DNA of 64,000 nt, taken from NCBI RefSeq assembly GCF_036971445.1, contig NC_091478.1, forward strand, positions 76,260,001-76,324,000. Reading direction: 5' to 3'. The notes below the pieces were generated by a model. It searched no databases, had not been told where the DNA came from, and was given only the letters and a program-made list of their open reading frames with translations. Made by a program: the position numbers and the translations under genes. Each line of letters begins with the position of its first letter. Positions within the stretch are counted from its first letter, which is position 1. Below are positions 15,386-50,183 of the stretch, one piece after another. This stretch comes from Narcine bancroftii (taxonomy: Eukaryota).

Positions 15386-15576
15386 TTATTTTGTCTGAAA
15401 AATTAATTCCGTTATTTCTGCTCTGCTTCCTAGTCTCATTGGAATTCCATAGTAAATGGTCCCAGGAGTTACATACACTAAACTGTTCTCGGCAGTTTTA
15501 TAAAGACCTTCAAAGTATGGATTCAAAACATAGGCAGCAATTGCCAGAGGAAAAATCTGTCCAGCATGAGTATGAC
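15386..15576 (-). CDS. TMPPE: TMPPE coding exon 5 (last)
   Basis: [26 protein letters not shown]...[30 protein letters not shown]; metallophosphoesterase motif V (GHTH). Confidence 0.93.
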
Positions 15577-24403: not shown

Positions 24404-24543
24404 CACAGAGAACTAGGCTGATGTCTGGTCTGCTTTGAAGGGCACGTTTAGCAGCTGCTGGCTGATGCGCCAACAGCACTATGGTGTCTTCGGAACTGCA
24501 GCCATCCAATGCTTTATTTAAATCCATACCATGTTCAGGATAT
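24404..24543 (-). CDS. TMPPE: TMPPE coding exon 4
   Basis: [46 protein letters not shown]; 140 nt, phase 2-1. Confidence 0.93.
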
Positions 24544-26043: not shown

Positions 26044-26209
26044 TGTAACATGTCTGCTTCAATATCGTCGACCCCTGCCAGGCAGAACCAGTCCTTGTTC
26101 CCACGTGGGCTGTAAATCTTGACATGTTCATTGTGGAGAGGCCGTATATTTAACGACTGCAGGTGCACCAACCAGTTGGCGACGTCAGCACTGTAATAAT
26201 CATGGTTAC
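26044..26209 (-). CDS. TMPPE: TMPPE coding exon 3
   Basis: [28 protein letters not shown]...[14 protein letters not shown]; motif III (GNHD); 166 nt, phase 1-2. Confidence 0.93.
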
Positions 26210-38560: not shown

Positions 38561-39406
38561 GCTACTAGTTTGTTGTACCACATGAACTTCCACAAACTAA
38601 AGTAGACATGTCCGATAATCAACAGCATGAAATGCTCTGAGCATTTGTCTTTTTTGACTGTTTATTTCACTTTGGGGTGGTTACCAAAGATTTTAAGTGA
38701 ATGACAACATTTCTCATTATGATCAGAATGGTTGCTGGAGGTCATCCCATGAAAATAAACTTATTTGGACATTGACAACAAATAACTTGAGATTCACGAT
38801 AAAGGGTTAACACCCAAACGTTAACTGCCATTTCTACCAATAAATGTTGCCTGACTTCCTGAGTTCCTCTAGCAGTTCTTTGCTTGCTCAACATTCCAGC
38901 ATCTGGATCTTTTGTGTTTCTCAACTCAAGCCAGTTCATGTGAACTAGGAGGCCAAAATATTTTTTTGAAGCTTATGAGATGACTTCAGGGTCACTTACC
39001 ACAAGTAAGGAGCAGACACAGCAATGCAAAGCCATGACAAACCTACCATGGAGACAAAGAGTTATACAGAGTTTTAATATCCTTATATTTTTCCAGGTGA
39101 CTGCTTCCTACAGGTAACTATCATCTACTTGAAATCTATTGTTCATGATAGTACAGTACATTGCCATTTACACTTTTGGTCTAAAATTCAAGATGTATCA
39201 TCTACATTGTGAGCTGATATCGGAGATGGCTGGCAAGTTGATTGTTCTGCTTTCTTAGATTGACCAATTTTGCAACTTTCCAATTTGGATATTAAATATT
39301 TTAAGATAATAACCCACATTTTTAATTTCTACATTTCCAGGCATTTATTTGTGTCTGTTTCACTTATGTGCTTTGTATTCACATATCAAATAAAGGTAAC
39401 TATTAC

Positions 39407-39517
39407 CTGTAACAAAATATGTTCCCAATTTTGGCATCAGCTGTCTTAGAGGTTCTGTGGCTGTTCTGAGGTTGACCACCTGGGAATCAGTCAGGTCACC
39501 AACAATCACTACGATAT
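39407..39517 (-). CDS. TMPPE: TMPPE coding exon 2
   Basis: [37 protein letters not shown]; motif II (GDLTD); 111 nt, phase 1-1. Confidence 0.93.
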
Positions 39518-39699
39518 CTGAAAAATGTGCAGTTATTTCCATAACACATACCTTAATTCATATGCACATTGGGTGAGACACAGTATAAATTGGAGCTAAT
39601 TATCTATTTATGGTTACACATTAAGACAGTTGATGTAAATGAAAATTAGATCAGCCTCCGACAGCTACATGGCCATAACTATAGGACACAAAACAGAAA

Positions 39700-39900
39700 A
39701 ACGTCACTGACAGAATGGGATGCATTACACCTCAAGTCATTTTATATATTTTACATAATCCTTTGAGCACACTCCCGTTGAGCATTCAAGCTGGTTGCAT
39801 CACTGTCTGGTACATTCAAGACAAGAAAAAACTCGAGTTAACTCAGCCTGCGACATCACAGGCACCAGATTTCAATCCATCAAGGGGACAGCTACAAGAG
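39700..39900 (+). mobile_element. Rex1/L2-like LINE remnant abutting the tandem array
   Basis: SIQAGCITVWY; similar to 4380-4500. Confidence 0.5.
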
Positions 39901-42389
39901 GCCATTGACTTTGTTGACCACACTCTTGTTGCCAGCTCTAGATAATGTGTGCCTTACCCGGGTCCAGGTCATTGACCATGTTGACCACACTCTTGTTGCC
40001 AGTCTAGATAATATGTGCCTTACCCGGGTTCAGATCATTGACCATGTTGACCACAGTCTTGTTGCCAGTCTAGATATGTGCCTTACCCAGGTTCAGATCA
40101 TTGACCATGTTGACCACAGTCTTGTTGCCAGTCTAGATAATATGTGCCTTACCCGGATTCAGATCATTGACCATGTTGACCACAGTCTTGTTGCCAGTCT
40201 AGATATGTGCCTTACCCGGGTCCAGGTCATTGACCATGTTGACCACAGTCTTGTTGCCAGTCTAGATAATGTGTGCCTTACCCGGGTCCAGGTCATTGAC
40301 CATGTTGACCACACTCTTGTTGCCAGTCTAGATATGTGCCTTACCCGAGTCCAGGTCATTGACCATGTTGACCACACTCTTGTTGCCAGTCTAGATAATA
40401 TGTGCCTTACCAGGGTTCAGATCATTGACCATGTTGACCACACTCTTGTTGCCAGTCTAGATAATATGTGCCTTACCAGGGTTCAGATCATTGACCATGT
40501 TGACCACACTCTTGTTGCCAGTCTAGATATGTGCCTTACCCGGGTCCAGGTCATTGACCATGTTGACCACACTCTTGTTGCCAGTCTAGATAATATGTGC
40601 CTTACCCGGGTCCAGGTCATTGACCATGTTGACCACACTCTTGTTGCCAGTCTAGATAATATGTGCCTTACCAGGGTTCAGATCATTGACCATGTTGACC
40701 ACACTCTTGTTGCCAGTCTAGATATGTGCCTTACCCGGGTCCAGGTCATTGACCATGTTGACCACACTCTTGTTGCCAGTCTAGATAATATGTGCCTTAC
40801 CCGGGTCCAGGTCATTGACCATGTTGACCACACTCTTGTTGCCAGTCTAGATAATATGTGCCTTACCAGGGTTCAGATCATTGACCATGTTGACCACACT
40901 CTTGTTGCCAGTCTAGATATGTGCCTTACCCGGGTCCAGGTCATTGACCATGTTGACCACACTCTTGTTGCCAGTCTAGATAATATGTGCCTTACCCGGG
41001 TCCAGGTCATTGACCATGTTGACCACACTCTTGTTGCCAGTCTAGATAATATGTGCCTTACCAGGGTTCAGATCATTGACCATGTTGACCACACTCTTGT
41101 TGCCAGTCTAGATATGTGCCTTACCCGGGTCCAGGTCATTGACCATGTTGACCACACTCTTCTTGCCAGTCTAGATAATATGTGCCTTACCCGGGTCCAG
41201 GTCATTGACCATGTTGACCACACTCTTGTTGCCAGTCTAGATATGTGCCTTACCCGGGTCCAGGTCATTGACCATGTTGACCACACTCTTGTTGCCAGTC
41301 TAGATAATATGTGCCTTACCCGGGTCCAGGTCATTGACCATGTTGACCACACTCTTGTTGCCAGTCTAGATAATATGTGCCTTACCAGGGTTCAGATCAT
41401 TGACCATGTTGACCACACTCTTGTTGCCAGTCTAGATATGTGCCTTACCCGGGTCCAGGTCATTGACCATGTTGACCACACTCTTCTTGCCAGTCTAGAT
41501 AATATGTGCCTTACCCGGGTCCAGGTCATTGACCATGTTGACCACACTCTTGTTGCCAATCTAGATATGTGCCTTACCCGGGTCCAGGTCATTGACCATG
41601 TTGACCACACTCTTGTTGCCAGTCTAGATAATATGTGCCTTACCCGGGTCCAGGTCATTGACCATGTTGACCACACTCTTGTTGCCAGTCTAGATAATAT
41701 GTGCCTTACCAGGGTTCAGATCATTGACCATGTTGACCACACTCTTGTTGCCAGTCTAGATATGTGCCTTACCCGGGTCCAGGTCATTGACCATGTTGAC
41801 CACACTCTTCTTGCCAGTCTAGATAATATGTGCCTTACCCGGGTCCAGGTCATTGACCATGTTGACCACACTCTTGTTGCCAGTCTAGATATGTGCCTTA
41901 CCCGGGTCCAGGTCATTGACCATGTTGACCACACTCTTGTTGCCAGTCTAGATAATATGTGCCTTACCCGGGTCCAGGTCATTGACCATGTTGACCACAC
42001 TCTTGTTGCCAGTCTAGATAATATGTGCCTTACCAGGGTTCAGATCATTGACCATGTTGACCACACTCTTGTTGCCAGTCTAGATATGTGCCTTACCCGG
42101 GTCCAGGTCATTGACCATGTTGACCACACTCTTGTTGCCAGTCTAGATAATATGTGCCTTACCCGGGTCCAGGTCATTGACCATGTTGACCACACTCTTG
42201 TTGCCAATCTAGATATGTGCCTTACCCGGGTCCAGGTCATTGACCATGTTGACCACACTCTTGTTGCCAGTCTAGATAATATGTGCCTTACCCGGGTCCA
42301 GGTCATTGACCATGTTGACCACACTCTTGTTGCCAGTCTAGATAATATGTGCCTTACCAGGGTTCAGATCATTGACCATGTTGACCACC
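39901..42389. repeat. Tandem array of 38 units of 63 or 66 bp, each a copy of the TMPPE exon-1 3' end plus 5' splice site plus start of intron 1
   Basis: Minus-strand unit: GTGGTCAACATGGTCAATGA(T/C)CTG(A/G)ACCC(T/G)G/GTAAGGCACAT(ATT)ATCTAGACTGGCAACAAGAGT. The terminal unit is the real exon end. Higher-order periods of 195 and 324 bp. Confidence 0.97.
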
Positions 42390-43036
42390 ATTTGAAGTTT
42401 GCTCCTTCCCACTGTGGGCCCCAGGTGGATATCGGACAGCAACACCATCTTCAGCTGATGGAATGACTGAGGCAGCTTGTGGAGAGGAAGCTCCACCCGT
42501 TTGACGACGGGGGGCAGGCGGCCGTTGAGGAGCCCCAGTACGGTGCAGACCAGGGTGAAGGAGAGGGCGACGGCGAGGGCCAGGCCTGGACGGGCCGAGG
42601 GCGTCCGGCTGACGCAGCCGCGGGCCCGGTCCAGCGCCCCGCACGCCAGCAGGCTGAAGAGGAGGAAGACGTAGGCCCCGAGGCAGGAGTAGCAGAGCAG
42701 GGAGAGGGGGTGCGGCTCCTCGGACACCAGCGTGAGGAGGCAGGCGGAGCTGGAGTGGGCCAGGAGGAGGAAGGCCGCCAAGGTGGCTCTCCAGGCCCGC
42801 AGGCCCCGGCTGGGAGGTCCGGGCCGGGGGCCGTGCAGGCCAGCCGCGGCCTTGCTCCAGATGTAGTGCGTCGCGGCGGCCATGAGGGTGTTGAGGAGCA
42901 GCAGGGCCTGCACCCGGAGCACCCTCAACAGCGTGAGCTGCTCGATGCGCCCGCGGACGCTCCAGGCGGCCGCCATGGACACAAGCACGGCGGCGGCGGC
43001 CAGCGACACGCCGGCCTGCCACGGCAGCCTGCCCAT
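42358..43036 (-). CDS. TMPPE: TMPPE coding exon 1 (transmembrane segments plus LLSDIHLGP motif I); full CDS 1287 nt, 428 aa
   Basis: Hydrophobic N-terminus followed by LSDIHLGPTVGRSKL; CTG/GTAAGG donor at 42357; all five exons join in frame with all calcineurin-like phosphoesterase motifs. Confidence 0.93.
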
Positions 43037-43560
43037 GTCCGGGCCCTCACCACGCAGTTATTGCCGGGGTGGAGGGACCTCAGCCGGCCGCTTCCTCACG
43101 CCGGGGCCGCGGGCTGGAGGAGACACGAGGCTGGACCGGGTGGTGGTGGGCGGGGTGGAGCGCGCCTCGGGCTCGGGGAGAGGGGGCGAGAGCGCGTCTC
43201 GGGCTCGGGGAGTGGGGGCGAGAGCGCGCCTCGGGGAGAGGGGGCGAGAGCGCGCCTCGGGTTCGGTGAGAGAGCGCGCCTCGGGCTCGGGGAGAGGGGG
43301 CGAGTGCGCGCCTCGGGCTCCGGGGAGAGGGGCCGAGAGCGCGCCTCAGGCTCCGGGGAACTGGCGAGAGCGCGCCTTGGGACGGTGCCCCTCACCCGCG
43401 AGGCCGCCCGTGAACGATGCGGCCCCTCACCCGCGAGCCGTGCACGCGTGGCGGTGCCCCCGGTCGGCCCGGAGAAGAGGGGCGTGGCGTGACTCCCTAA
43501 AGTCCGCTCTCCCACCGTTGTCCCACCCCACCGCATCGTGGCCCAAGGCCAATGCGAACG
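42480..43560. promoter_or_regulatory. CpG island / TMPPE promoter region
   Basis: Very GC- and CpG-rich against an AT-rich, CpG-poor background; covers the start codon and upstream region. Confidence 0.8.
43158..43380. repeat. GC-rich minisatellite (about 32-bp unit, 7-8 degenerate copies) upstream of the TMPPE ATG
   Basis: Recurring gagcgcgcctcgggctcggggagagggggcga with internal deletions. Confidence 0.85.
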
Positions 43561-47610: not shown

Positions 47611-48430
47611 GCTGGGTGCGAATTGCGGCCGCACTTTATTTCTCCATTCACGATCACGAGTGGGTTGGCAATCTCTGCGTCTTCTACTTACGGCGCCCCG
47701 CTCCCTGAGCGAATTTGCGGAAAGGGGAAGGTGACAGCATGATTTGAGGCCGGCGCCTCGTCTTTGTCCGCGGCTGACCCATGACGCGGCCACCGGGGGG
47801 CGGGCCACCTATCATGGCGCCTCGGACGCTGAGGCGGGAAGAGGTGGCCGACTTGGTGGCCTTGGCTCTGCGCTCCGGGCTCACGGAGCGGGACATCGCG
47901 CGGCTGCCGTCGGTGCCTAAGCTGCTGGGGAGCTGGGGCCCGGGCAGCCAGGAGGAGGGGCGGGGGGCGGCGGCGGCGCTCGTCCTCCTGGCCTTCCTGC
48001 TGGTCCTCCTGGGCGGCCCCGCGGCGCGGCGCCTCTGGCTCCGGGGCAACGAGGCCTGCGTGCTGGGCTTCTCGGAGCTGCGCAACCCGTTCCGCCGGCC
48101 GTTGGACTGCCGCTCCTGCAGCAACGTGACGGCCGTGGAGCGGAGGAGCAACCTGAGCCACGAGGAGTTCCTGCGGGCCTACGCCTACACCATGCAGCCG
48201 GTGGTGGTGGAGGACGGCCAGAGGAACTGGTCGGCCAGCGACGTCTTCACCTTCCACTTCTTCTCCCAGATCTACAGCAGCGGCAGCGGGGTCCTGGACA
48301 GCAGCGGCAGCGAGTGCCAGTTCTTCCCCTACGACACCGACTTCCGCAGCCTGAGGGATGTGTTCGGCATGGAGGCCGGCCGTGTGGGCATGCAGGGCGA
48401 CGCTGAGCCCTGGTACATCGGATGGTGCGT
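47600..48430. promoter_or_regulatory. CpG island / promoter and first exon of the JmjC-like gene
   Basis: Dense CpG; GC box (ggggcggg) near 47797. Confidence 0.75.
47814..48424 (+). CDS. Uncharacterised membrane-anchored JmjC/cupin-domain protein, exon 1 (alternative in-frame ATG at 47781)
   Basis: MAPRTLRREEV...AAAALVLLAFLLVLLGG (TM)...DCRSC...EEFLRAYAYTMQPVVVED...FFPY...WYIG; donor TG/GTGCGT, phase 2. Confidence 0.88.
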
Positions 48431-48586
48431 GTCGACAACAGTCGGCTCCTTCTCTTCCACCGTGTGGTGGTGGTGGTGGTGGTGGAGGAAGCCTGGGTGG
48501 CAGAGCCTGTGCTGGAGAAACTCAGTCCTTCAGGGAGCCCTTCATCAGGGGGTGACACAAATGGAGGCAAAAGGCTCGAAACGCGG

Positions 48587-50183
48587 TGCTGGCCCATCAA
48601 CAATCCACAGAAGGCCGAGTAGGGAATCAGGCTTTTAATAGCTAAAGACTGGGACACTATCAAACAATCATCCGCCTGATCAAAGTAAAAGGGTGGCAAT
48701 GCAAGGGGCTGTGGTTAGGATCGGTTTCAGGAGGCCAATCACAGTGTAACAGGGGTTTACCACATTCACCCCCTCCTCTTTACAAAGAATCCTGCAGGGT
48801 GAGAAAAAGAGAGTGAAACAACTGGACACACAAACACATTTACAGGTAAGTCTATCCGGGGTGGTGGGGGGGGGGGGGGTCTCCTCTGTGCCAGTGAGCT
48901 GCGTGGCAAAGGTTGGGATGGGCTGCCGTAACATCGTGATCAAGTTGAGGCCTGTTAACTGGTGGTGGAAGGGAGTGTGGTGCACGAGTAGCCTGAGGTA
49001 AGGGGCGGTCAGCTGCACGTTCGGGGACCCCCTAAGGTTGGAGTGGGGGGGAGAGTGTGGAAAGTCGGTGGTGGTCGAGGGGGATCCTGAATCAAGAACC
49101 ATATCTTCTTGCCCATCGGGAAACGTAGGCATACTGGGGGTTGGTGTGGAGGATGCAGACCCTCTTTACCATTGGGTCAGTCTTAGATTGCCTGACGCGC
49201 TTACGGGGCAGGATGGGTCCCGGTGAGGTTAGCCAGGTGGGTGGCGTAGTCCATTCATGAGGCATGCTGTTGGTGGCCTTACGTAAAAGTGACCGAACGG
49301 AGTGAAGTGCACTTGAGAGGACTTCCTGCCAATGGAGATGTGGAGACCCCATTACCTCAGTGCCAGGAGGATAGTCTTTCAGACTGTGGCATTTTCCCTT
49401 TCCACTTGCCCATTACCCCAGGGATTGTAGCTGGTGGTCCTGCTCGTGGCAATGCCTCTGGCCAACAGATACTGCAGCAGCTCATTGCTCAAGAATGATG
49501 TACCCTGGTGACTATGGATGAAGTCAGGGTACCCAAACAGCATGAAGATGCTATAGAGAGCCTTGATAACAGTGGCAGTGGTAATGTCAGGCCAAGGGAT
49601 GACGAAGGGGAAATGGGAATATTAATTAATAACAGTAAGGAAATAGATATTCTGGTTAGAGGAGGGGAGGGGACCCTTGAAGTCGATGCTGAGATGCTCG
49701 AAGGGGCACGTTGCCTTGATAAGATGCACCTTGTCTAGTTGGTAGAACTATAGTTTGTATTCAGTACAGACCTGACAGTTTCTAGTCATTGTCTGAATCT
49801 CCTCGACAGAGTAAGGTAGATTCAGAGATTTAACAAAATGGAAAATTGGTAACTCCAGAATGACAGAGGTTATTGTGAAGAATCTGTCTTTTGTCCATTT
49901 GAAGACTAACACAGGTTCCATGGGATAAGGCATCTGAGGACTCATTAAGTTTCTCTGGTTTTAGATACTGCTCCATAATCATTTGAAAATTTTAGCTATT
50001 AAAATGGATGTACCATCAATAATTCACAAAAACCTGTGTGGTGAAATAAACAAGCTTTTAAAAGCTAACTATCAAACAATCATCCACCTCCTTCAGAGCA
50101 AAGGTAAAAGGGTGGCAATGCAAGGGGTTATGGGTAGGATTGGTCTCTAGCAGCAAATCATGGTATAACAATGGTTTACCACA
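48587..50183 (-). mobile_element. Internally deleted Gypsy element 3 (related to element 1); only the integrase region remains between LTRs
   Basis: LTRs about 50006-50183 and 48587-48764, both starting TGTGGTAAACC on the minus strand; PPT at 48765-48781; integrase peptides similar to 20200-20900. Confidence 0.8.

Follow-up and report, generated by a model that had tools for sequence, protein, structure and literature searches.

Several genes are known in which a minisatellite begins on an exon/intron junction and so repeats a splice donor. In human F7, intron 7 holds five to nine units of 37 bp (Borensztajn et al. 2006, PMC1557585). Only the most upstream donor is used, and adding or deleting units in minigenes leaves donor choice unchanged (PMC1557585). 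The available part of the same report describes four further human cases: IFI6 (6-16), whose intron 2 has 25 pseudo-sites; CBS, whose intron 13 has 15–20 units; LMNB2, with 10–15 units of 100 bp; and PDGF, whose intron 4 has 16–18 units of 81 bp (PMC1557585). As described there, splicing in IFI6 and CBS makes use of two further sites, the pseudo-sites next in line, which counts against strict first-donor choice. So does the finding, in HeLa cells and extracts, that choice falls on the intron-proximal site when duplicated strong donors lie at least 45 nt apart (PMC3413131). In lancelets, the Adh3 and globin genes carry "mirage" repeats, minisatellite-like tandem copies of an exon/intron boundary. 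The available part of that account describes concerted evolution within a cluster and length instability, with no reported effect on regular splicing (PMC3087553).

Here we analyze an array of this kind at the exon-1/intron-1 junction of TMPPE, within a 64-kb stretch of the Narcine bancroftii genome (hereafter, the window). An initial annotation, made from the sequence, had implied that the arrangement was new; in the available text of the two sources it is already published, with no fewer than five human genes, as well as lancelet genes, as examples (PMC1557585, PMC3087553). A literature search on TMPPE with metallophosphoesterase, covering titles and the beginnings of abstracts outside subscription journals, returned nothing on TMPPE splicing or on the array.

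Results

The gene is TMPPE, as the initial annotation had proposed: the exon-1 protein finds its best matches among ray and shark TMPPE (53–54% identity in the top four), and tblastn placed four more TMPPE exons in the window. A five-exon GT-AG model on the minus strand yields a 428-aa ORF, with 292–305 residues identical to five shark and ray proteins. The first coding exon (42358–43036, 679 nt), placed by homology and the gene model, starts with the ATG at 43036 and ends in phase 1 with CCTG. Exon 2 (39407–39517, 111 nt) is backed by tblastn, contigs, and the model; exon 3 (26044–26209, 166 nt), exon 4 (24404–24543, 140 nt), and the coding part of exon 5 up to the stop codon (15386–15576) are backed by tblastn and the model. 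The acceptor is where it had been placed, with its AG ending at 39518 and exon 2 starting at 39517.

The surroundings of exon 1 have features of their own. Its protein is just 53–56% identical to six shark and ray orthologues, which are 69–86% identical among themselves, while exons 2–5 are 82–89% identical to protein P0001. GC3 is 0.95 over the first 170 codons, and the interval 43037–43400 has 77% GC and a CpG observed/expected ratio of 0.97; the exon-1 divergence looks lineage-specific and GC-driven, in a CpG island. Just 5′ of the start codon, at 43158–43381, lies a GC-rich tandem repeat of 24–33 nt, likely in the promoter or 5′ UTR. On the plus strand, pointing away from TMPPE, a GC-rich 286-aa open frame (47778–48638) has the look of a genuine first coding exon; Pfam gave it no hit at 1e-3. 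In mammals, TMPPE is nested with GLB1; a search of the 64-kb window with the TMPPE–GLB1 fused rodent protein P0021 found no GLB1 exons.

On the minus strand, GGTAAGG occurs 38 times from 42357 down to 39957 (each coordinate is that of the first intron G), in steps of 63 or 66 nt, and twice in the remaining 61,300 bases. TRF finds one array (39899–42388, minus strand; periods 129, 195, and 324), which motif counts resolve into 38 donor-bearing copies and a degenerate partial tail at about 39899–39925, which may be an old copy or a seed microhomology. It overlaps the last 31 nt of exon 1, at a boundary backed by homology, the ORF, and the spliced junction. Each unit consists of 31 nt of exon end and either 35 or 32 nt of intron. 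The 38 donors are the authentic donor 1 and 37 extra GTAAGG donors. The 38-fold array and the unit composition thus stand as first annotated. A same-genome search with one unit returned at least 38 matches, all within the TMPPE array; the search passes over very common words, so this count is a lower bound. The rest of intron 1 (39518–39898, minus strand; gene model and contigs) runs to the acceptor and contains a high-copy interspersed repeat fragment near 39780–39885.

Donor 1 reads CTG/GTAAGG (42352–42360, minus strand, first intron base 42357), as placed by the motif, the gene model, and the CCTG-type junction. Its wider CCTG/GTAAGG context recurs in eight of the 37 further donors, making nine in all: internal copies 6, 11, 16, 21, 24, 27, 30, and 31, at 42033, 41709, 41385, 41061, 40866, 40671, 40476, and 40410. 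All eight had been noticed before, two of them with positions one base off. The other 29 donors are mostly CCGG, as had also been said (27, with one TCGG and one CTGG); by the last three exon letters, the array has nine CTG/GTAAGG, 28 CGG, and one TGG donor. These variants are ordered in higher-order blocks, with four blocks of five units followed by three blocks of three and then, at the 3′ end, by units that vary more. Such an order would be the pattern expected of block-wise tandem turnover.

Donor 1 is the only one of the 38 that gives the full 428-aa TMPPE on translation. Read-through from it meets a TAG at intron nucleotides 18–20 (42340–42338, minus strand; ORF check). With any donor further downstream, this TAG ends the frame prematurely at codon 233, and 37 of 37 yield a 232-aa product. 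The earlier statement that each unit carries an in-frame TAG and only the most upstream donor makes protein is borne out. The stop falls 463–2797 nt before the last junction. By the usual 50–55-nt rule, TMPPE transcripts from donors 2–38 would be NMD substrates. Replacing the exon end with a variant unit would turn N into D at TMPPE position 225, which is N in all eight top-ranked homologues; since one teleost has D there, such a swap may be tolerated.

Two other candidate readings of the repeat were rejected. As a tandem mini-exon array, it offers 430 array-internal segments running from an AG to a donor and no longer than 200 nt, none of which gives a full TMPPE ORF, and before the unit AGs at most 8 of 14 bases are pyrimidines. 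On the plus strand, a stop-free 874-aa antisense frame runs through the array (39842–42466). Such a frame is expected because unit lengths are multiples of three, and 93% of shuffled 66-mers keep some frame open. Its three Pfam hits are repeat-summed noise, with no stretch passing alone.

As a measure of donor strength we took the duplex energy with the same genome's own U1 5′ end. It is −10.8 kcal/mol for the 28 CGG donors, −9.7 for the TGG donor, and −8.5 for the CTG type; all 29 GG-ending donors thus pair better with U1 than the authentic type does. Predicted local accessibility is 0.14–0.18 for 15 GG-type donors, 0.35 for donor 1, and 0.39–0.43 for the internal CTG copies; according to these predictions, folding could favor the CTG type whatever its position. 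The same genome has 42 matches to the U1 gene. Nineteen U1 snRNA gene matches stand in tandem at G000:C5:186624081-186733009, spaced about 6 kb apart.

Fourteen sequencing runs contain all or part of TMPPE exon 1. The contig comparison covered four of these (X1, X2, X8, and X9) over 39250–40005 (756 bases), with X3–X7 and X10–X14 outside it. None of the runs is on record as RNA. That X1, X2, X7, and X8 are RNA is a guess; in X1, X2, and X8, joints from exon to exon do behave like spliced RNA. Contigs of 95–96 nt crossing from unit to unit, recognized by their places, lengths, and mismatch counts rather than by their letters, are present in two runs of study P1 (X2 and X8) and in one of study P3 (X9, organism B). 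In X9 the unit-to-unit contig has a depth of 29.6 vs. 2.4 for unique intron DNA, a ratio of 12.3 where 20.6 is expected, which at 2.4-fold cover is too noisy to indicate a shorter allele. None of these three runs is flagged as potentially the source of the assembly, and unit-to-unit contigs in other samples speak against an assembly artefact.

X1, X2, and X8 each contain one splice-like joint, which links 39518 and 39960 through one intervening A, at exon-2 joint depths of 208.4, 171.5, and 95.4. On the coding strand this A corresponds to the T of CCTG, so exon 2 is joined to a CCTG-type end; a GG-ending donor would join without an extra letter, and the joint therefore separates the two types. 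CCTG is the only exon-2 junction type in all three putative RNA runs. A GG-ending joint into exon 2, the type of 29 of the 37 downstream donors, is listed in none of the X1, X2, and X8 contigs. GG is the ending of donors 2–5, which are next in line, and also of donors 32–38, the closest to the acceptor; thus neither group was seen in use at contig level. The junction contigs of X2 and X8 end 30 nt into sequence common to donor 1 and the eight internal CCTG copies. Contigs pool these nine donors, lose rare forms, and are blind to RNA destroyed by NMD.

Depth bears on the internal CCTG copies. Stable RNA spliced from one of them would keep donor 1 unspliced and hence raise the ratio of CCTG/GT-read contig to unspliced acceptor in X1. 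That ratio is 9.0 (98.1 to 10.9) where the assembly has nine such copies, a second unit contig stands at 17.4 times vs. 19.0 expected, and the array is at plain intron depth, in a check that comes from X1 and with contig depth being no ranking of the parts of a gene. Exon 2 has a depth of 229.5 in X1 vs. 219.3 for junction and unspliced contigs together, leaving ∼4% unaccounted for. In X2 the array stands at ∼9 per copy (151.3/16.8) vs. 2.6 at the start of intron 2, depths that may leave room for some unit-retaining RNA. The intron remainder at 39536–39769 has no contig in X2 and X8, which we do not count as absence. Overall, the putative RNA contigs fit first-donor use, with the authentic junction type the only one seen.

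X1 also holds a contig of the unspliced intron-1 acceptor (39489–39866) at ∼5% of the spliced junction depth and no contig at the start of intron 2. Intron 1 could be removed slowly, or the contig could derive from DNA.

Discussion

The array is probably a minisatellite of intron 1 that arose from a 66-nt segment of TMPPE; of its 38 donors likely only the first is used, and the array is likely a near-neutral passenger. The segment, lying across the exon-1/intron-1 junction, would have been duplicated and then amplified by slippage or unequal exchange, and later amplification of whole blocks would have produced the 5-unit and 3-unit higher-order repeats. Donor choice would follow position: as in human F7, the most upstream site would be defined together with the long coding exon at a time when the others are still uncommitted. 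Any leak to later donors would place a stop 463 nt or more ahead of the last junction and be removed by NMD, amounting to a small mRNA cost and not a function. Among the options raised by the initial annotation, strict first-donor selection is favored by the CCTG-only junction in three of three putative RNA runs and by an X1 array depth equal to that of the intron. The other two, a rheostat and a U1 decoy, gained no support and keep a small share of probability.

The strongest competitor to the passenger reading is that donor choice leaks appreciably, a real share of transcripts using downstream donors, meeting the TAG and entering NMD, so that longer alleles lower TMPPE output, whether incidentally or as a selected rheostat. 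Several features of the locus point this way: downstream GG-type donors have the better U1 pairing, the 63- to 66-nt spacing lies beyond the 45 nt from which the proximal site is used (PMC3413131), and each downstream donor leads to a stop 463–2797 nt before the last junction. IFI6 and CBS set a precedent with their two used pseudo-sites, and the available text reports the CBS repeat as associated with lower CBS activity (PMC1557585). X2 array depth per copy is also above that of its intron 2. However, a GG-type junction appears in zero of three putative RNA runs, the X1 array shows no excess over intron depth with only ∼4% of exon-2 depth unaccounted for, and unit number did not affect donor choice in F7 (PMC1557585). 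On balance we regard substantial leakage as unlikely.

A stronger form of the same idea would have many nascent TMPPE transcripts use one of the 29 stronger, acceptor-nearer donors, acquire the stop of the unit, and be destroyed before steady state. Steady-state RNA conceals NMD targets, and leak products would be hidden in any such sample. This NMD-coupled rheostat is, in our judgment, quite improbable. If it were true, allele length would set the dose of the TMPPE enzyme in a wild vertebrate.

The spare donors might instead act without being cleaved, binding U1 snRNP and thereby slowing intron 1 removal or shielding the intron from premature 3′ end formation. In complex E, one pre-mRNA can carry two U1 snRNPs on alternative sites (PMC3413131), and the X1 contigs, with unspliced intron 1 at ∼5% of junction depth and none at the start of intron 2, are in keeping with slow removal. 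However, a stretch without contigs is no proof of anything, and intron 1 lacks both AATAAA and ATTAAA, the signals that would need shielding. The 42 U1 gene matches in the same genome also weigh against a decoy: 37 sites at one locus are negligible beside the nuclear U1 pool. We hold a U1 decoy or platform to be very unlikely. That the array is missing or far shorter in real chromosomes is extremely unlikely: no single contig record spans it and the copy number is that of the assembly, but unit-to-unit contigs occur in two studies, X1 depth agrees with nine CCTG copies, and variants among the units are ordered in higher-order blocks.

The array is of modest significance: its repeat class is known, and the TMPPE case is a large and clean instance. 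It is also a naturally occurring test of how a 5′ splice site is chosen, with 37 spare donors, most of which pair better with U1, at spacings above 45 nt; despite them, the authentic type is the sole type seen in the putative RNA contigs. The human genes LMNB2 and PDGF, as far as the available text describes them, already point much the same way, and TMPPE would confirm that picture rather than change it. Were NMD-blocked RNA to reveal heavy hidden use of later donors, such arrays would tax or tune expression beyond the steady-state impression.

Comparison with known systems

The TMPPE array belongs to the class of minisatellites whose first unit lies across an exon/intron junction, the F7 type or "mirage." As in human F7, the first unit spans the junction and tandem pseudo-donors follow the authentic one (PMC1557585). 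F7 differs in having five to nine 37-bp units, all with the same donor, behind an internal exon (PMC1557585), whereas TMPPE has 38 units of 63 or 66 nt behind a 679-nt first coding exon, most of its donors are a variant with better U1 pairing, and every unit has an in-frame stop. In the available text on the other human genes, IFI6 and CBS resemble TMPPE in carrying 15–26 reiterated donors but also use the next two pseudo-sites, where TMPPE shows no such use at contig resolution; LMNB2 and PDGF resemble it in their long units, and both use the authentic donor only (PMC1557585). TMPPE exceeds all four in copy number, as they are described there (PMC1557585). In structure the array is like the lancelet "mirages," as the available account presents them (PMC3087553), and TMPPE is a case of this kind in a jawed vertebrate.
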